Source: Callorhinchus milii
Taxonomy: Eukaryota
Assembly (NCBI RefSeq): GCF_018977255.1
Contig: NW_024704742.1
Span: 41,914,001 to 41,978,000, forward strand
Reading direction: 5' to 3'
DNA: 64,000 nucleotides
In this document: positions 3,297 through 54,879 of the stretch, piece by piece
Numbering within the stretch: the stretch's first letter is position 1
Layout of the letters: each line of letters opens with the position of its first letter
Program-made: the position numbers and the translations under genes
Notes under the pieces: model-generated
The model's input: only the letters and a program-made list of their open reading frames with translations
What the model was told of the DNA's origin: nothing
The model's database searches: none

Positions 3297-3666
3297 AATA
3301 ATAATCCTTGCATTTGATATAGTGCCTTATCACGTCTTCTGGACATCTCAAAATGCTTCAAAAATATACTGTAAGTAAATTGACTGTATATTTTGTGGGC
3401 GAAACATGGCAGCCAATTGCGCACAGCAGTGTCCTACAAACAGTCATGGATTGAGGTGACCAATTTCTTATTATTAATTTTTTGGGGCAATTATTACCCC
3501 CGGAAAAGCAATCTGCCAATTGACTAGTAACTGGGTTCCTACTTACTGCTAGGTAAATGGAGGCGTGTGGAGTAAGGAAACTTGCCCAACATTTTGGCCT
3601 GCCGTGAATCGAACCCAAGTCTCTCGCTTGCGAGGCGAGCACTCTAACCATTGAGCTACAGGACTC
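3297..3666 (-). mobile_element. tRNA-Ala-derived SINE, long form with full CORE-like module
   Basis: Minus-strand head gagtcctgtagctcaatggttagagtgctcgcctcgcaagcgagag (A/B boxes), body with tttacctagcagtaagtagg, Deu-like 3' part, L2-type tail and (TTA)n end. Confidence 0.9.
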
Positions 3667-3844: not shown

Positions 3845-5952
3845 ACATAGGAACATAGGAATTAGGAGCAGGAGTAGGCCATTCGGCCCCTCGAGCCTGC
3901 CCCGCCATTCAATAAGATCATGGCTGATCTTCTAACCTAACTCCATCTGCCTGCCTTATCCCCATATCCCTTAATTACTCTCTCCTTTAGAAATCTATCA
4001 ATTTTAGAAATTTTAGAAATCTTGCGTATGTTGAAGGACTGAGCATCCACAGCCTTCTGGGGTAGAGAATTCCATAAATTCACTACCCTTTGAGTGAAGA
4101 AGTGTTTCCTCAACTCTGTTCGAAAGGGCTGTCCCTTAATCTTAAGACTGTGACCCCTAGTTCTAGATTCTCCTACCAGGGAAAACAGTCTCACACTGTC
4201 AAGCCCCATAAGAATCTTATATGTTTCTAAAAGATCACCCTCTAATTCTTCTATATTCTAGAGAATATAGGCCTAGTTTACTCAACCTGTCCTCAAAGGT
4301 CAACCCCCTCATCCCAGGAACTAACCTAGTGAATCTACGCTACACCCCCTCTAAGGCAAGTATGTCCTTTCTTAAATAAGGAGACCAAAACCGCATACAA
4401 TATTCTAGGTGCGGTCTCACCAAGTCCCTATATAGTTGCAGCAACACTTCCCTACTCTTGTATTCTAACCTGTTTGCAATAAACACCAACATGCCAGTAG
4501 CCTTCCTAGTTGCTTGCTGTACCTGCGTACTAACTTTTCGTGACTGGTGTATAAGGATACCCAAATCCCTCTGAATACTAGTCTCTCCTCTTCTAGAAAA
4601 TAATCTGCGTTGCTGTTTTTATTACCTAGGTGAATAAATTCACACTTCCCCACATTATATTCCATCTGCCACCTTCTTGCCCACTCACCTAGCCTATCTG
4701 TATCCCTTTGCAATTTTTTTTTTGTGTCATCCTCAGAGCTTACTCTTCCACCTAGCTTAGTATCATCCGCAAATTTAGATATTTTAAGTTCTATGTTCTC
4801 ATCTAGATCATTGATATAGATTGTAAATAGTTGAGGCCCAAGCACTGATCCTTGTGGCACTCCACTCATCGCATCCTGCCAATCTGAGAAGGACCCGTTT
4901 ATCCCTATTTCCTGTTTTCTTCCCATTAGCTATTCTTCGATCCATATTAATATTGCCTTTAATTCCATGGGCCCTAATCTTGTGTAACAGCCTTTTATGT
5001 GGCACCTTGTCAAATGCCTTCTGAAAATTTAAATATACTACACCTACTGGTTCCCCTCTATCTAACCTGCTAGTTACATCCCCAAAAAACTCTAAAAGAT
5101 TTGTTAAGCATGACTTCCCTTTTGTAAAGCCATGTTGACTCTGCTTAATCATGTTACGGTCTTCTAAGTATCCCACTACGATGTCCCTAATTAAGGATTC
5201 TAGAATTTTTCATACCACCGATGTCAGACTGACTGGTCTATAGTTCCCCATTTTCTCTCTCCCACCTTTCTTAAGTAGCGGTGTTACGTTTGCGATCTTC
5301 CAATCAATGGGAACCATTCCAGAATCCAGAGAATTTTGGAAGATCAAAAACAAGTCATCCACTATCTCAGCAGTCACCTCTTTTAAAACCCTAGGATGCA
5401 GGCCATCAGGTCCAGGGGAATTGTTGTTTTTCAATCCGAACAGTTTCCCTAGTACTAGCACTGATGTTAATTTCCCTAAATTGCTCACTAAGATTAGCTT
5501 CTTGGTTCCCCTCTATCTTTGGTAAGTTTTCAGTGTCTTCCAATGTAAAGACAGAAGCAAAGTATTTGTTTAATGACTCTGCCATATCTTTATCCCTCAT
5601 TATAATTCCTCCTGTCTCTGCCTGTAATGGACCCACATTCACTTTTGCTAGTCTCTTCCTTTTTATGTATTTGTAAAAACTCTTGCAGACTGTCTTTATG
5701 TTCCTAGCTTTCATAATCCATTTTCTCTCTCCTAATCAGTTTCTTAGTTTTTCTTTGTTGATCTCTGAAGCCCTCCCAATCCTTGGGTTTACTGCTCTTC
5801 TTGGCAGTATTATAGGTCTCTTCTTTTAATTTTATACTTTCCCTAACTGCTCCAGTTAGCCATGGTTGAACCACTTTTCCCGTGGTATTTTTATTCCTCA
5901 TGGGAATATATGATCGCTGGGAATTATGGACTATATATTTAAAGGTTTGCAA
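3845..5952 (-). mobile_element. 5'-truncated CR1 LINE; frameshifted ORF2 (linker, reverse transcriptase, C-terminus) and 3' UTR
   Basis: Consecutive minus-strand ORFs give SPGPDGLHPRVLKE, DWKIANVTPLLKKG..GNYRPVSLTS, QHGF..GKSCLTNLLEFF, YLNFQKAFDKVPHKRL, GVPQGSVLGP.LF.IYINDL, FADD, LVRPHLEYC, TRGHSLK and FFTQRVVNLWNSLP. The short repeat tail acataggaacatagg is at 3845. Confidence 0.97.
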
Positions 5953-7112: not shown

Positions 7113-7430
7113 GGAGTCCTGTAGCTCAGTGGTTAGAGCACTCGCTTTGCAAGTGAGAGACCTGAGTTCAATTCCAGGCAGGGCGAAACCTTGGGCAAGT
7201 TTCCTTACTCTACACGCCTAATAATAATCCCTCCAAAACCAAAAACAATAATAAATTTATCATTTTTGATCTACGACTGTTTGTGGGACATTGCTGTGCG
7301 CAATTTGCTGCCGTGTTTGCCCACAAATATACAGTCAATTCATTTTACAGTGTGTTCTGTGAAGCGCTTTGGGACATCCTCCCGACATGAAAAGCGCTAT
7401 ATCTAATGCAAGGATTATTATTATTGTTAT
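7113..7430 (+). mobile_element. Young tRNA-Ala-derived SINE (short form)
   Basis: Head ggagtcctgtagctcagtggttagagcactcgctttgcaag. Nearly identical to the copies at 10279 and 39874. L2-like tail and (TTA)n end. Confidence 0.95.
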
Positions 7431-10278: not shown

Positions 10279-10590
10279 GGAGTCCTGTAGCTCAGTGGTT
10301 AGAGCACTCGCTTTGCAAGCGAGAACCTGAGTTCAATTCCAGGCAGGGCGAAACCTTGGGCAAGTTTCCTTACTCCACACGCCTAATAATAATCCCTCCA
10401 AAACCAAAAACAATAATAAATTGGTCATTTTCAATCTACGACTGTTTGTGGGACATTGCTGTGCGCAATTGGCTCCCGCGTTTGCCCACAAATATACAGT
10501 CAATTCACTTTACAGTGTGTTCTGTGAAGCGCTTTGGGACGTCCTCCCGACGTGAAAAGGGCTACATCAAATGCAAGGATTAATTAATTA
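10279..10590 (+). mobile_element. Young tRNA-Ala-derived SINE with target-site duplication
   Basis: Same family as 7113. Flanked by aaatgag at 10271-10277 and 10591-10597. Confidence 0.95.
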
Positions 10591-18460: not shown

Positions 18461-18660
18461 AACAAAACGCAAAATAGTGCTGATGCTGGAAATCTGAAAC
18501 AAAAATAGAAGTCGCTGGGAACACTCAGCAGGTCAGGCAGCATCTATGGAGAAAGTAAAGTGAGTTAATGTTTCGGGTCCACGACCCTTCATCCCAACTG
18601 GGGCATGTTGGTAGGGAGAGGCTTTTAAGGACTAACAGAGAGGGGGGAGGCAGAGCAAGA
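18461..18660 (-). mobile_element. Penelope-like element terminal fragment with mutated hammerhead core
   Basis: Same sequence as the arms at 48532-48751 (gatgctggaaatctgaaacaaaaa...cagcaggtcaggcagcatctatggaga...tttcgggtccacgacccttc). Confidence 0.7.
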
Positions 18661-18794: not shown

Positions 18795-18879
18795 TGTCCA
18801 AAGTTTCGCCCTGCCGGGAATCAAACCCAGGTCTCTCGCTTGCAAGGTGAGTGCTCTAACCACTGAGCTGCGGGACTCC
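18795..18879 (-). mobile_element. tRNA-SINE head only
   Basis: gtttcgccctgcc...tctcgcttgcaaggtgagtgctctaaccactgagctgcgggactcc. Confidence 0.85.
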
Positions 18880-21154: not shown

Positions 21155-22030
21155 TCCCATAGAATTACATGGAATGTTGCTACGTGGAAACAAGCCATTT
21201 GGCACAACTAGTTTATGTGGGTGTATATACCTCACATGAGAGTCCACTCTTCCTAATCCCCTCTAACATACCCCTCTAATCCATTTTCATTCATGTATGC
21301 ATTAAGTTTCCTCTTAAAAACATTTATACTTTTTGATTCAATCATAGCTTCCTAAAATCAGTTCCATATTCTCACTAAACTCTGCAAAAAAAAAGTTACT
21401 CCTAAACCCCCTTTCGGACCTGCTATTGTCTTATATTTATGCTCCCTCACTTAGGACTTACCAACAAGTGAATACAACTTAAGTGGAGCCCTGTAAATCA
21501 GTGGTTAGAGCACTCGCCTCACAAGTGAGAGACCTGGGTTCGATTCCTGAAAGGGCGAAACCTTGAGCTAGTTTCCTTACTCCACACACCTGATAATAAT
21601 CCCTCAAGAAAAAAATAATAAATTGGTCACTTCAATCCACGTCTGTTTGTGGGACACTGCTGTGTGCAATTGGCTGCCACGTTTTGCCCACAAATATACA
21701 GTCAATGCACTTTACAATATATTCTGTGAAGCGCTTTAAGACATCTAAGAAGATATGAAAAGCGCTATATCAAATGCAAGGATTATTATTAGTATTATCA
21801 TATACAACTTTTGATAAGGCCACCTTATCAAATCCTTTCATAGTTTTAAACACCTCTGAGGATCCCTTCAATATGTCTCTTCTCCAGAAAGAAAAACTCT
21901 AATCTGTCCAATCTCTCTTAATAGCTGGATCCAATCATCCCTGGCAACATCTTAGAAAATGTATGCTGTACTCTCTCTAATGCCACAATATCCTTCCTTA
22001 CAACATTACGTAACCCCAACTGAGGGAACC
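21155..22030 (-). mobile_element. Old CR1 3' region interrupted by a SINE
   Basis: catagaattacatggaat...gccatt...ttccatattctcacta...tttatgctccct, resuming after the SINE as ttttaaacacctct...ctctcttctccag...atccctggcaacatctt. Confidence 0.75.
21485..21800 (+). mobile_element. tRNA-derived SINE with target-site duplication
   Basis: Head ggagccctgtaaatcagtggttagagcactcgcc. Flanked by atacaactt at 21472-21480 and 21802-21810. Confidence 0.92.
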
Positions 22031-39873: not shown

Positions 39874-40195
39874 GATAATAATAATAATAATAATCTTTGC
39901 ATTTGATATAGTGCTTTTCACGTTGGGAGGATGTCCCAAAGCGCTTCACAGAACACACTAAAGTGAATTGACTGTATATTTGTGGGCAAACGCGGCAGCC
40001 AATTGCGCACAGCAATGTCCCACAAACAGTCGTAGATTGAAAAAGACCAATTTTTATTATTCTTTTTGGTTTTGGAGGGATTATTATTAGGAGTGTGGAG
40101 TAAGGAAACTTGCCCAAGGTTTCGCCCTGCCTGGAATTGAACTCAGGTCTCTCGCTTGCAAAGCGAGTGCTCTAACCACTGAGCTACAGGACTCC
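39874..40195 (-). mobile_element. Young tRNA-Ala-derived SINE (short form)
   Basis: Near-identical to the reverse complement of 7113 and 10279, with an (ATA)n tail. Confidence 0.95.
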
Positions 40196-47149: not shown

Positions 47150-48065
47150 TAGATAGCAAGAACTAGTCCACAGTTGCTGAAATGTGAAAACGAACATAAA
47201 AGCTAAGAATAATATTAAAATGTAAGATTCAGAAAGTAAGGAGAACATTGGTACAAAATCATTTTAAATTAACGTAATTAAGTATTAGGGGGAAGAGGCA
47301 GAGTGCAGGAATCAGCCAGAGGGATCAATAGAATGTTTTAGCAATACATGTAGTTGGCGGATTATTGAAGAATGGATAGATGGATCATTTCTTTAGTTTG
47401 GTAACAGCATCAAATGAGATCAGAAAGTGGTTGATGTGCTACATTAAGTCTTAACAAATAAAAGTGGTGACAAGATACTGGATTCACTTAAAACTGGCTC
47501 TGGAATCTGCAGCACATGTTGAAGTCAGCTATGCACTATGAAGAAACCCAAAGATTAAGGAGCAAGAAATGCAATGTAGCAATTTTAATGATTTGTGTTT
47601 GTAAAAGGATTTCAAGATGAATTCCTTTCTGAGAGTCTACAGAGCACATGGATAGATGTAGCACATTTCAGAATCCTCAAAGAAATGAATATTTAAACAG
47701 CATGCTCTGATCAATAATATCAGGAATTCAGTAAAGTCAGGGTCTGACCGAAGACTGGAGAGGTGCTCATGCAATCTCATTATTCAAGAAGACTGAGATA
47801 TAAATCAGGCAATTGCAAACCAGTTAGTCTAATATAGGTAATGGAGAAAATGTTTGTGTATTTTATGGGATACTATCAATGTTCATCTGAAAAGCATGTC
47901 AGCTGTAATGGGAAGTCAGTACAGATTTAGAAGCAATAGGTCATGCCTCACAAATCTACTGGAATCCTTTGAAAGGGTAATTAAGTTATTGGCTGAGTGA
48001 TATTCAGTACGTAAAATATACTTGAAGTTTCAGAGGATGTTTGATAAAGGTTGAGAGGTCATGGG
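47150..48065 (+). mobile_element. Old CR1 ORF2 fragment
   Basis: DWRGAHAISLFKK..SGNCKPVSL, SQYRFRSNRSCLTNLLESFE and IYLKFQRMFDK at about 47750-48050. The 5' boundary is uncertain. Confidence 0.75.
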
Positions 48066-48531
48066 TACAAACCTACAATGCAATCCTTGTTTCTTTGTAG
48101 GTTACTGATTTTGCACTAAGGGAATCCAGACATCGCCAGACATTTTCTATTGCTTTCTGAAGAGAACCCCATCCAGCCTGCCTCTACACTGAACCCTGGC
48201 TTTGAATGAGTCCCGAAAAACCAAATGCTCCTTTCAGCATTGTAAATAATATTTAACGAGTAATAGCCCCATGAATAAGACAGCCTTCCTGGAATTTAGC
48301 AAGTGGCAAGAAATCAATCAGTTGCTCATTTTATTATCGAGGCTGATCTCTAATCTCAGAACAAAAGTGTTGTTCTAGCAAGATAAATAATGTCTTCAAA
48401 TAGGCAAACAAGCAACTTATGTGTGAGTGTTACTATGTCTATGTATGTGGGCACGTGTTGATAGGTGAGAGTGTATGTAAGCATGCATCCCTTTGCCTGC
48501 ATTTCTATGTGTCTGTATGTATGTGTGTGGA

Positions 48532-48751
48532 CAAAACACAAAATACTGCAGATGCTGGAATCTGAAACAAAAACGGAGAGAGCTGGGAAAACCCAGCAGG
48601 TCAGGCAGCACCTATGGAGAAAGGAAAGTGAGTCAATGTTTTGGCTCCACAGTTCTGACGAAGGGTCGTGGACCCGAAACGTTGACTCACTTTCCTTTCT
48701 CCATAGATGCTGCCTGACCTGCTGAGCGTTCCCAGCTCTCTCTGTTTTCGT
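48532..48751. mobile_element. Palindromic Penelope-like terminal-repeat element
   Basis: Inverted arms of about 85 bp at 48567-48650 and 48668-48751. Same family as 18461. Hammerhead motif at the centre. Confidence 0.8.
48651..48687 (+). ncRNA. Candidate minimal type I hammerhead ribozyme
   Basis: agtt-CTGACGA-a-gggtc(gtg)gaccc-GAAA-cg-TT-gact: conserved core boxes, perfect 5-bp stem II, 4-bp stem I, and a minimal palindromic stem III (aacgtt). Confidence 0.6.
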
Positions 48752-49095
48752 ATGTGTGTGGAGGTGTTTTGTGTGAGAGGGCTGGGTATGTGTCTGCAAG
48801 TCTGTGTATCAGTGTTTTGTGACTGTTTGTCCCTGTTCTTATGGATGTATGAGTGTGTTTTTTCGAAGGTGTATGTGTGTGTCTATATATTAGTGTGGGT
48901 GTGCATAGAAGATGCACATGTGAGAGTATGTGAGAGTATGTGAGAGTATGTGAGAGTGGAAATGTGTGTGAATTTAGTTTATGAGTGGAAGGTATATTTA
49001 GATGTCTATATATCTGAATATGCGAGGATGTATGTGGGGATGTATGTATCTGTATATATCATTGTGGATGTGAATATGTGTGTAAGTGATTATAT

Positions 49096-49363
49096 GGAGT
49101 CCTGTAGCTCAGTGGCGGAGAACTCACCTCGCAAGTGAGACCTGTGTTTGATTCCCAGGCAGGGCGAAATGTTGGGCAAGTTTCCTTGCTCCTCACGCCT
49201 CTGTTTACCTAGTATTAAGTAGGAACCCGATTATTAGTCGATTGGCAGCTCACCCACAAAATATACAGTAAATTCACTTTACAGGATATTTTGTGAAGCG
49301 CTTTGAGACGTCTCGAAGACGTAAGAAGGTGCTATATCAAATCCAAGCATTATTAGTATTATT
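49096..49363 (+). mobile_element. tRNA-derived SINE, long form with internal deletion
   Basis: Head ggagtcctgtagctcagtgg, CORE-like ttgggcaagtttcctt...gcctctgtttacctag, and L2-like tail. Confidence 0.9.
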
Positions 49364-50984
49364 ATGTGTGTGCATATGCATGTCAGTGTGGGTGCAAGGT
49401 TGAGTGTGGGTGTGTGGGTTGCGCTACAAAGATTGTTGCAGGAAGAGATTTGTGATGATGATCTTAATGGAAAACACAAGAATAATTCAATTAATTACAG
49501 CAGAATTAGTGGTCGCAGCTCTGGAAAATATCAGCTGGCAAAGGCTTCCATTTGAAAGCCAGACCTCATAAGTCATTAAAGTTAGAATCTGCCAGAGGAC
49601 TGGGAATGATTTCACCATAAGCGGTCGTCAGTAATTTGTCAGTCATGCACAGCTTCACCTTTGTGTCCTATACATAAGAGTTCCTTCTACAGGGGAGAGG
49701 GCAGAGTGCATTCTTATATGCACCAAACCACGACAGGAGAGAACGGCTAGACTCATTTACACAGACTTTTAAGTAGACTTCAAGGTTGCTGTGACTGAAA
49801 CAAAAATATACTGCAACCAAATGTATAGCTGGAAAAGCAAAATTAAACTTTCCCCTAGACATAGAGTTCCAGCTCTGTGATTCATTCTGAACAAATTACC
49901 CAATTAATACTATACCTGCTGTTCGTCAAATGCCACCTGTGTATTCCCACCACATGCAGCACCAGACACGATTCAAATCATGGCCTGAATTAAACAGTTG
50001 GTAAACACGGTCAAACTCAAAGGCAAAGGCAGTTTGCTCCTCAAAGTTAAAATATGTTCTCCTCAGATCTCTCGGGTTCTTAACTCCCAGGCTAAGTCAC
50101 AGCATGGTCCATTTAATTCTGGTGTGCTCAGTCACTCAAAGAGCTCTCTTTACGCTGTCTGACTGGATGCAGTAACTTCCACATTGCAGGGCTGCATAGT
50201 GACAGGCTTTCAACCTAGTGCTTCTTGAAGGCCTCACAAGGATTCAGAAAGCAATGAGGATGCATGGCCAAATGTTTGATTTTATCCAACGTGTATTTCA
50301 GCTCCAAAGTCTATATGCAAGTTAATGGGAAATTCACTGAGCATATATCTCTCTCTTGGTAAGGCAAGGATATCCCATGTCAATCACTCTATTCAATATA
50401 TTCATTAGTGATGTATGGTTCTGTTTGTAGAGCATATTGTCTCATCAGTGGGACATGAAGCAGGCCGCTGTTGGCAGGAGAAGTCCCCCAAACAACCATG
50501 AGGTAAATGACCAATTTATCTTGGGGATTGTTGGCCAGGAAACTGGAGGAAACCTGTGGGATCTTTGTCTTAATATTACACCAGAGGCAGAGTTATACAC
50601 CTCATGAAAGGGTGTAATGCTATTGTGTTTCATACTCAATGACATAACCAGCCTACAGATGTCAGTGTATAGGAGACGTGATAGTGTCACACAACCATCC
50701 CATTCTGGTAATTAGAATGATATCACCATGAACTCGGGATCCTGAACAGTGACACAATCTACCTCCAGAGTGCAGTTTCCAAGCACCAGTGCGACTTGGA
50801 TTCCTTATGAGAAATATTAAGAAATGCTGTACCACAAATTAGATCCTTGTATTTCTATTGTAAAACAAAAAATGCATCAATTCTAGAATATACTCGCCAA
50901 GGAAATAATGACTGTTTGACTATGTTATTAAATTTGCAAGAGTTATTTGTTGCATTATATGTCGTTTATTGCTTATTAGTTATT

Positions 50985-51368
50985 ACCTTGTGGTTAAAGC
51001 ACTTACATCGCAGTGAGTGGACCTGGGTTTGATTCCCGGGCAGGGTGAAACGTTGAGCGAGTTTCCTTACTCCACATGCCACTGTTTACCTAGCAGTAAG
51101 TAGGAACCCAGTTATTATTCGATTGGTGGATTACTTTGCCCTTCAAAACATTTGATATAATTACATGAATTAAAATTTAAAAAATAATAATAATACGGTC
51201 ACTCAATCCACGACTGTTTGTGGGACACTGAAGTCCACAATTGGCTGCTGTGTTTCGCTCACAAAATATACAATCAATTCACATTACTTTATATTCTGTG
51301 AAGCACTATGAGACGTCTCGAAGATGTGATAAGGCGCTATAACAAATGCAAGCAATATTATTATTGTA
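50985..51368 (+). mobile_element. tRNA-derived SINE, long form
   Basis: gtggttaaagcact...cctgggtttgattcccgggcagggtgaaac...gtttacctagcagtaagtaggaacccag...tttgtgggacac...aaggcgctataacaaatgcaag. Confidence 0.88.
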
Positions 51369-51831
51369 TTACCTGGCAATCCTCCTAAAGGCTCAGTTTG
51401 TGCATTAGTCTTGGTCCTGTATCTCATCTAAAAGGAGTTCAGAGTGTAACTTCTGCAATGTCTCAACAAGCTATTTGATAGGATAAATATGTTGTGATCA
51501 ATCGACAAAACTTTGATGTACAATCTGGGCTGGACATATTGCTTAATCTCAGAATTTAGATGAAATCAACTACCATTTATTGTAACACGCTGTTCCCATA
51601 ATGAAAGAAATACATGTTTCGACCCAAACTAATATTTCAGAGAAATGACTTGTGAACGGTGATTCAAACCAGCAAAACTAAATGTACAATACAAAATTAC
51701 ATTTGTATACAAATTTGTGCTGACACTTCTGATTTGAAGTGAAAACACGATTATCCAGCAAAGTACAATCTAATGTAATGACTTTTTATTTGATCAACTG
51801 AGTAACTGAGACATGCGGAAACCAATCAGCA

Positions 51832-52095
51832 AGCCAGACTGAAGGTGCCACATATGTATGCTATGTGCACATGGAAATTTCCCTATGTCTGGAATGGAAT
51901 GCATACTCTTTCCCTGGAGGGACTCATCCTGCTTATCACATCAATTTTACATTATATAGTACCTTTCACATCAGGAGGATGTCTCAAATTTTGGAGTTTA
52001 TTAGGCACATATTGGCAAGAGGCAAGGCTTGGGAACCCCAGAGTGTGCATTGGGGTATTGCTGGAATTTAACCAGCTAAAACTACACAGCTTGAT
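51832..52095 (-). repeat. Unnamed old repeat (family B), inverted relative to 53578-53845
   Basis: ccagactga...ccacat.tgtatgc...tggaaatttcc.t.tgt.tggaatggaatg.atact...ttggcaagag.caagg.ttg.gaacc.cag...gtattgctgga.ttta aligns with the reverse complement of 53578-53785. Confidence 0.7.
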
Positions 52096-52449
52096 ATTGC
52101 GAAGACTGTCTGGCAAACTTCCCGATGCACCCCTGCCCATGAGGGCTTTGGCTTGCAAGGTTAAGAGGTGCCATGTGGGAAGAAACCCTGTTTCCAATAA
52201 ATACAATGAGTACAGTAAAATAATTATATGTAAATTACTTAATTAAATAATTCATGTAATTATATCAAATGTTTAAAAACCTTCACTTCTCTGGAATACA
52301 TCAAAATACAAATTTGACTTCAATATTACTTGGCATAGTTTATTAAACCGTCTTCGTGATATTTTGTGTCTTTGACCAATTTGTTTCAAATCTGTGAAGT
52401 CCTTTGAGACTGTATTTTGTGAAATATTCTAGTTATTCTAAAGAGTTCC

Positions 52450-53577: not shown

Positions 53578-53845
53578 ATACAAGCTATGCAACTTTAAAC
53601 TCCAGCAATACACCAACACGTTCTGAGGTTCTCAAACCTTGGCTCTTGCCAACATATGCCAAATGCTCGCTGAGATAAGGTAAATTGTGTGGATCCTTCC
53701 AGAGAGAAAGTATCCATTCCATTCCAAACACAAGGAAATTTCCATATGTTGGTGGCATACACATGTGGAACTGTCAGTCTGGTTTAGATACTCTTAAACA
53801 CGGTGATAGGTTTCTGCATATGTCAGACACCGGCTGACAAAACCA
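53578..53845 (+). repeat. Unnamed old repeat (family B)
   Basis: Matches 51832-52095 in inverted orientation and 35380-35485 in direct orientation. Confidence 0.7.
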
Positions 53846-54879
53846 AATTGCATAATGCTGTTGCACCATAGCATACAGTGCACTGTACATGTAACACACG
53901 AATGTTGGGACATCCTCCCGATGTAAGAGGTGCTATACAATGTAATTTTGTTGTCGCTGTTAGTTTCTTTTGAGCCATGATGATATTTGTTTTGGATTTC
54001 AGCATTCTCAACAATTATGCGTAACATCCCATTCCAGCGGAAATGCATGGAGTTCCTGCAAAGTGCTCAGCTTGGAAATGTTTCTATATGCTATTAAACT
54101 GTAACACTAAAATGTTTAACACATTTGAGAGAAAAATACAGAGACTGAGAAATTAACAGTGAGCTGAATCTACTTAAGATTTGTTCCAAGGAAATATGCT
54201 AACACTGATCTGGAAACCCAAACTAAACCTCCCTGATCAGATGTTTCTTATCCACTTCAAATACTAGTTTGTGAGAAGACACAGCTGATGCAAATTACAC
54301 TGCACCATTGCATTTTAATAAGTTGATTGCTAAACAACAATTTACATTTATTTAGAGTCTTTTTGTCTGGGGATATCTCAAAGTGCTTCACGGAGTTAAC
54401 TGGGAATCTGAGGTGAAGGGGAGAGCTGAGGAAGGTGGTGGGGAGAAAAGTGACCAAAAATGATCACAAGACTGTTAGATCAGTCTTGTGGTGATATTAT
54501 AGCTTCTGTTTCAGCTTTCAGATCCTCGTTAGTCAAGCCATTGTAGCTTTTTTTATATATATCTAGGCCTTGTTCTTTCATTTCTCTTGGCAATTGATAA
54601 TGCATGATTTTATTCTCCCATTTTTTTTCTACAAGACATCATTTTCTTTTTAAGGACAATTTTCACTTCCACGAGCCATTTTTATTGGTTCAGATGAGCT
54701 ACTTTCTACTTCTTTTTGATGGATGTCATATTCATATGTCATGTTAATGATAAATTACTGTATTATTATTGCGTAATAGTTTATTGAGTTTTTCCTTGTA
54801 TTAGTTCCAAATTTACTATCACTGATTTCTATTTCTGTTCCCTGCTCCTACTGTCATATCTTATCATTGAAGTAATAGT

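Follow-up and report, generated by a model that had tools for sequence, protein, structure and literature searches.

An apparently intact minimal hammerhead ribozyme at 48651–48687 of the window (the whole 64-kb stretch of DNA that was analysed) raises the question of whether this copy cuts RNA of its host or is a remnant of the element that carried it. Very probably it is a remnant: the motif is the minimal hammerhead of a terminal repeat (pLTR) from a Penelope-like element (PLE), and the locus is a dead, lineage-specific stub of a single insertion, from which little or no cleavage is expected.

The boxes, the stems, the extra A and the palindromic stem III of the original prediction are confirmed by direct reading of the sequence (Table 1). 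According to the accessible part of PMC4209133, PLE minimal hammerheads possess both conserved boxes, an extra base between positions 9 and 10.1, a G10.1–C11.1 pair, a palindromic 15.2–16.2 segment, no helix III and a helix I of 4–5 bp. In the target, both boxes and UH at the cut site are present, A48662 is the extra base, G48663–C48675 forms the G10.1–C11.1 pair, 48679–48682 is the palindromic segment, the monomer has no helix III and helix I contains 4 bp, in agreement with the proposal of a PLE-type minimal hammerhead of type I. The proposed cut after GUU at 48683 is likewise supported; GUU is a permitted triplet, listed among the cleavable NUH sites (PMC3138052).

Table 1. Coordinates of the hammerhead motif, the insertion that carries it and the second family copy in the window
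Feature	Position	Strand	Remarks
Minimal type I hammerhead motif	48651–48687	+	core letters all intact; predicted cut between 48683 and 48684
Stem I, 5' strand	48651–48654	+	read from sequence
CUGANGA box	48655–48661	+	read from sequence
Extra A after CUGANGA box	48662	+	read from sequence
Stem II	48663–48667/48671–48675	+	5 Watson–Crick pairs, 3-nt loop, closed by G48663–C48675
GAAA box	48676–48679	+	read from sequence
Palindromic stem III strand (four bases, self-complementary)	48679–48682	+	read from sequence
GUU triplet	48681–48683	+	predicted cut site after 48683
Stem I, 3' strand	48684–48687	+	4-bp stem I, innermost pair U·G
Target-site duplication, left copy	48519–48531	+	exact 13-mer, recurs at 48750 and nowhere else in the window; single at the X11 empty site
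Target-site duplication, right copy	48750–48762	+	exact 13-mer
One-sided tail of inverted copy	48532–48568	-	extends 37 nt farther than the right copy does; also present in the second window copy
Inverted 5'-truncated copy of element end	48569–48650	-	starts in hammerhead loop II; only a decayed 3' half of the hammerhead
Direct copy of element end	48651–48749	+	99 nt, from the first stem I base onward
Second family copy in the window	about 18462–18640	-	tail, broken-core hammerhead, plus upstream element sequence missing from the target; not a fold-back

The two core boxes alone are not above chance (one match against 0.87 expected, a count reached by 58 of 100 shuffles). The full descriptor, including boxes, stems, palindromic stem III and triplet, gives one match in the window against one in 300 simulated windows, the descriptor having been built from published features after the motif had been seen. 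A hammerhead model search had also been proposed as a check; no Rfam hammerhead model matches the motif, and hammerheads are absent from both the six matches above the gathering threshold and the 11 matches to E 10. The innermost pair of stem I is U·G in the target and U–A in the second window copy, a one-sided change. In addition, the consensus of loose ends in the run X12 (63 contigs) has a single change relative to the target over the stretch from stem II to stem I, and none of the four CpG sites of the motif has been lost.

The motif lies within an insertion of 218 bp (48532–48749), bounded by a 13-bp target-site duplication. Inside these boundaries, an inverted copy of 119 nt, tail included, is joined head to head with the direct copy of 99 nt. 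The inverted arms (48567–48650 and 48668–48751, 84 nt) are 89% complementary, and 48569–48650 differs from 48668–48749 at nine of 82 letters (11%), three of the nine being inside the hammerhead half and several being fast-changing CpG sites. Once one CpG site is assigned by the X12 consensus, seven of the nine differences lie on the left (inverted) arm; the hammerhead-bearing arm has changed less than the other, without significance (p 0.18). Both arms contain a variant stretch near 48736–48742 that is missing from most family contigs. The placement of the motif at the centre of the palindrome holds for its 5' half, which forms the unpaired centre (48651–48667), and fails for its 3' half, which is situated inside the right arm.

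Around the insertion, a degenerate TG-rich tract extends over 48420–49066 and contains a 10-mer tandem at 48918–48957. The left flank carries a short separate multi-copy stretch (47916–47993) with raised depth in all four sequence runs. A tRNA-headed SINE copy is located 340 bp to the right of the element (49093–49371), and other members of its family are located at 3594–3665, 7115–7186, 10281–10351, 18806–18877, 21487–21558 and 40122–40193; six SINE heads pass the Rfam tRNA threshold. The genome is that of a vertebrate, and its repeats are probably of a cartilaginous-fish type. Farther away, an inverted pair of dispersed repeats, about 80% alike, occupies 51831–52071 and 53595–53954, separated by 1.5–1.9 kb, and a perfect 27-nt inverted repeat (51146–51172 and 52248–52274, 1075 nt apart) lies outside the longer repeats.

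Contigs from four runs were aligned to 47760–48900 at 80% likeness: X3 and X16 from organism A, X11 from organism B and X12 from organism C, where X16 is RNA by guess only and consists of contigs only. The family is of high copy, with 9366 (X3), 23654 (X11), 9318 (X12) and 3375 (X16) contigs, tallies that count contigs and not copies, and nearly all the depth falls on 48501–48773. One record of organism B (X11 record 2) represents the empty site: it lies on 48294–48514 and 48750–48900, and its corresponding positions 317–542 and 171–316 adjoin. The record skips 235 letters, corresponding to the 218 letters of the element, 13 of the duplication and one 4-nt microsatellite unit, and it extends well over 31 letters on each side, 31 being the minimum from which bridging of a junction is counted. 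By this minimum, X3 record 25, passing the left junction by 22 letters, falls short. X12 record 15 begins at 48750, as the empty-site record does, and its other part is not among the records listed. The X16 contigs leave most of the unique flank uncovered, which, for a run taken as RNA by guess, says nothing on expression.

The flanks of the window and of organism B differ at 71 of 863 letters (8.2%). At some flank positions organisms B and C agree with each other and not with the window; they are therefore counted as one lineage. Since the site is empty in B and the divergence of the flanks is near that of the arms, the insertion was probably made at around the time these organisms separated, and would not be shared with organism B.

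The second family copy, 30 kb away on the strand opposite to the target motif, has changes in the first two core letters and in stem III of its hammerhead. In all four runs, the loose-end consensus at 48650 agrees with the upstream stretch of this second copy, around which no target-site duplication was found (best 7 letters). A Pfam scan covered 300 of the 408 stop-to-stop frames of at least 50 aa, the 108 others having been omitted by hand, mostly because they lie in repeats or overlap. In the scanned frames, no parent frame with reverse transcriptase (RT) or GIY-YIG was found at the target locus, which has 218 bp between the duplicated sites, or linked to the family. The same scan gives two RT matches at 4468–5209, plus two weak ones below the cut-off; a frameshifted LINE-type reverse transcriptase fragment (Pfam RVT_1) occupies 3940–5735 on the minus strand. 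The architecture and the motif together point to a PLE as the probable parent of the family.

Relatives of the family were also searched for in other collections. Two scans of viral contigs gave 0 and 0 matches. A scan of a genome collection gave one locus on an actinomycete contig and identified no family member. The metagenome matches, at eight loci, are taken as chance: they are 21–26 letters long, none of the eight extends further, and all have 60–67% GC. Furthermore, several other identities were rejected for the target. As a microRNA precursor, its best Rfam score is 46.2 bits against a threshold of 85, with generic hairpin matches; an autonomous PLE is incompatible with 218 bp between the duplicated sites and no RT plus GIY-YIG frame in the 300 of 408 frames scanned; a MITE or fold-back DNA transposon is at odds with the one-sided tail and the variable centre joints; and a non-LTR retrozyme is at odds with one intact motif in 64 kb and no head-to-tail tandem units.

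The proposed origin would begin with the minimal hammerhead in the terminal repeat of the high-copy PLE family. The enzyme of the element would start copying inside the RNA at two sites one tail-length apart, +99 and +136 from stem I, and would nick both strands. One retro-insertion would then join the direct copy and the tailed inverted copy by their 5' ends, head to head, between the staggered nicks, leaving the fold-back and the 13-bp duplication. This enzymology is carried over by analogy from published PLE work (the accessible part of PMC11167929). Copying in an intact state and a limited period for decay since then would explain the intact hammerhead, rather than service to the host. A fold-back made by joining two short copies yields its hairpin as a by-product; hence the inverted arm is an insertion by-product that happens to bury the motif, and not a switch. 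Several observations stand as counterpoints to a stub without function or to this origin. The four retained CpG sites and the less-changed hammerhead arm also fit weak selection, and the duplication of 13 bp is longer than the 8–10 bp of the rotifer examples in the accessible part of PMC3846280.

The behaviour of the motif in RNA was approached by folding computations, which describe equilibrium secondary structure only and credit no core contacts, so that the hammerhead fold is understated. The computed share of hammerhead-compatible folds is about 5e-3 for the motif alone, 3e-3 for the right arm and 7e-17 for the whole element, and the motif alone favours pairing of 48657–48660 with 48680–48683. 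In plus-strand read-through prefixes, stem II is predicted to form briefly, with a probability of 0.79 at 48676 and 0.59 at 48683, a transient formation over transcript ends 48676–48683 that is itself a counterpoint to an inert stub. The left arm is transcribed first in any such read-through and would therefore capture the 3' half of the motif, producing a long hairpin. The pairing proposed originally between the flanking arm and this 3' half is borne out by the computation, reaching a probability of 0.986 once 48687 is made. Within the hairpin of the element, 172 of 218 bases are computed as paired, the longest unbroken helix has 33 pairs, and both strands fold at about -147 kcal/mol. Stem III would need a second motif, and no intact-core partner was found in the 64-kb window, where the other copy is broken and on the opposite strand. 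From these computations, little or no cleavage is expected in read-through RNA.

It had been proposed that this copy self-cleaves a host transcript, and that the inverted arm switches the ribozyme off. Such cleavage, by the motif alone, with a helping protein or together with a family copy in another RNA, would draw on core letters that are all intact, on a permitted GUU triplet, on the hammerhead arm having changed less than the other (not significantly), and on RNA from thousands of family copies as a source of partners (3375 contigs in X16, guessed to be RNA). However, the PLE minimal motif as a monomer shows no cleavage and as a dimer low cleavage in the accessible part of PMC4209133, and the anole PLE motif is cut only with the protein of the element, and RNA-seq shows no ends at its cut site (accessible part of PMC11167929). 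The computed intermolecular four-base stem III contributes -1.7 kcal/mol, compared with -147.8 for the hairpin, and the arm would take the motif before stem I can close. Furthermore, organism B has no insertion and hence there is no conservation across species, and no host exon was found with Pfam in 300 of 408 open frames, a scan that short exons would escape. Because published monomers are inactive, the window holds no partner core, no exon of a host gene turned up in the frames scanned and the upstream arm is predicted to capture the motif, cleavage of host RNA by the 48651–48687 copy is unlikely, and the claim of a self-cleaving host transcript is not upheld. The proposal of an off switch likewise gives way to a by-product in which no second state is apparent. 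As a whole, a self-cleaving copy regulated by its arm is thus given a very low probability.

Another reading gives the stub a role, if it has any, as double-stranded RNA, its hairpin of about 80 bp feeding small-RNA or editing pathways directed against the family, with the hammerhead incidental. The extensive pairing on both strands fits this, as do reports of small RNAs directed at Penelope copies in rotifer and fly (accessible part of PMC3846280), but the target locus has no expression evidence and such an effect would be common to many similar stubs rather than special to this one; the reading is quite improbable. A further reading takes the whole palindrome as a non-autonomous mobile unit, MITE-like or retrozyme-like, instead of a stub built anew at insertion. 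Fold-back forms do recur in the family, with joints from 48560 to 48650–48671 and opposite-strand joints, and the two arms share the variant near 48736–48742. However, the joints are at many different places, the ends are asymmetric with a tail on one side only, head-to-tail tandems as in the non-LTR retrozymes (accessible part of bioRxiv 10.64898/2026.07.22.740005) are lacking, and shared arm variants are expected if one RNA templated both arms, which leaves this reading extremely unlikely. Finally, the element could be ancestral and older than it seems, if recombination between the two copies of the duplication removed it precisely from organism B. The arm divergence slightly exceeds that of the flanks, and B and C count as one lineage; against this, a single gain is equally simple and several of the differences between the arms affect CpG sites, which change fast. 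Such a loss is unlikely, and if true would alter only the age of the element and not its identity. The single-insertion stub of a PLE terminal repeat remains the preferred explanation.

The 5' edges of the family copies provide a separate lead on the template RNA of the family. Many family contigs end at 48748 and many begin at 48650–48653. The loose ends before 48650 are upstream sequence of the family (agreement 0.48–0.55). Those before 48651–48653 are long and show almost no relation to one another, with an agreement of 0.35–0.39 compared with 0.32–0.37 for random 30-mers. Among the rows listed, contigs with such ends before 48651–48653 number 141 and 86 in X3, 254, 318 and 241 in X11, 79 in X12, and 31 and 41 in X16. 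In X3, the six rows listed hold 869 loose ends against 2364 partly aligned contigs, with 1042 other rows over all runs; these positions thus stand well above the average row. No loose-end row at 48684 is present among the 24 rows listed, which were chosen not purely by count from these and the 1042 others. Since copies that begin at stem I and keep the cut site inside come from uncut templates, this pattern suggests that many family copies, hundreds of contigs among them, have the first bases of stem I as their 5' edge because their template was uncut RNA with its start at that place.

In the second copy, a TATA-like word with two mismatches is located at -30 and an initiator-like word at the equivalent of the first base of stem I, a combination, found after the fact, that occurs at 0.08% of window positions. 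The same stretch can also be read as an acceptor preceded by a pyrimidine tract. Tentatively, the family RNA may start with the initial base of stem I (the equivalent of 48651), so that the transcript would open with the 37-nt ribozyme and the stubs of 100–136 nt would be complete copies, a possibility that we regard as rather less than even. Copying would then initiate internally at the 5'-proximal sites (+99 and +136) and run to the 5' end of uncut RNA. The main alternative is a splice acceptor at the edge of stem I, by analogy with Drosophila virilis, in which an intron ends at helix I (accessible part of PMC4209133) and the promoter is TATA-less with a start 46 bp before the intron (PMC2377424). 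If the start at stem I is true, hundreds of genomic records would exist of PLE templates not cut by the hammerhead in vivo, and the ribozyme would be a decapping off-switch on the own message of the element instead of a replication step. In the open-licence literature, a scope outside subscription journals and the repeat libraries Repbase and Dfam, no paper was found on this family, on 5' edges at stem I or on a start at stem I.

Compared with known systems, the target motif contains all the features listed for the metazoan PLE minimal hammerheads by Cervera and De la Pena (2014, PMC4209133, accessible part). In that text these hammerheads are mostly single dispersed copies, and opposite-strand pairs 100–700 bp apart are mentioned; the opposite-strand partner in the target, by contrast, is truncated in loop II and pairs back onto the motif. 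Helix II contains 5 bp in the target and 7–8 bp in the schistosome families of the same source, and no shark or chimaera name occurs in its two searched supplements. The vertebrate non-LTR retrozymes, reported in one chondrichthyan in the accessible part of bioRxiv 10.64898/2026.07.22.740005, resemble the target in being non-autonomous, pLTR-related and equipped with a type I hammerhead. However, their defining head-to-tail tandems supply the partner, whereas the target is single and inverted.

Meanwhile, insertions of endonuclease-bearing PLEs are described as a head-to-head inverted truncated copy with a 30–40-nt tail at one end and a target-site duplication (Arkhipova et al. 2013, PMC3846280; Craig et al. 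2021, PMC8557442; accessible parts). The target shares the inverted copy, the tail, here of 37 nt, and the duplication, and differs in having no ORF, in comprising only about 100–136 nt of the element end, and in a duplication of 13 bp against 8–10 bp (PMC3846280). In the anole Poseidon element PAc (Frangieh et al. 2024, PMC11167929, accessible part), two 3' ends are situated one tail-length apart downstream of the hammerhead, comparable to +99 and +136 in the target, and the copies keep the uncut hammerhead; PAc, which was tested in vitro, is intact and coding, whereas the target is a non-coding stub. As a whole, the family bears on the in vivo role of PLE hammerheads, because the 5' edges of its short copies record the start of the RNA and its cut or uncut state. 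The single locus itself matters little, as minimal hammerheads of PLE ends and fold-back stubs with tail and duplication have already been described and very many occur in the genome: motif and insertion both belong to kinds already known, of which this is an ordinary example.
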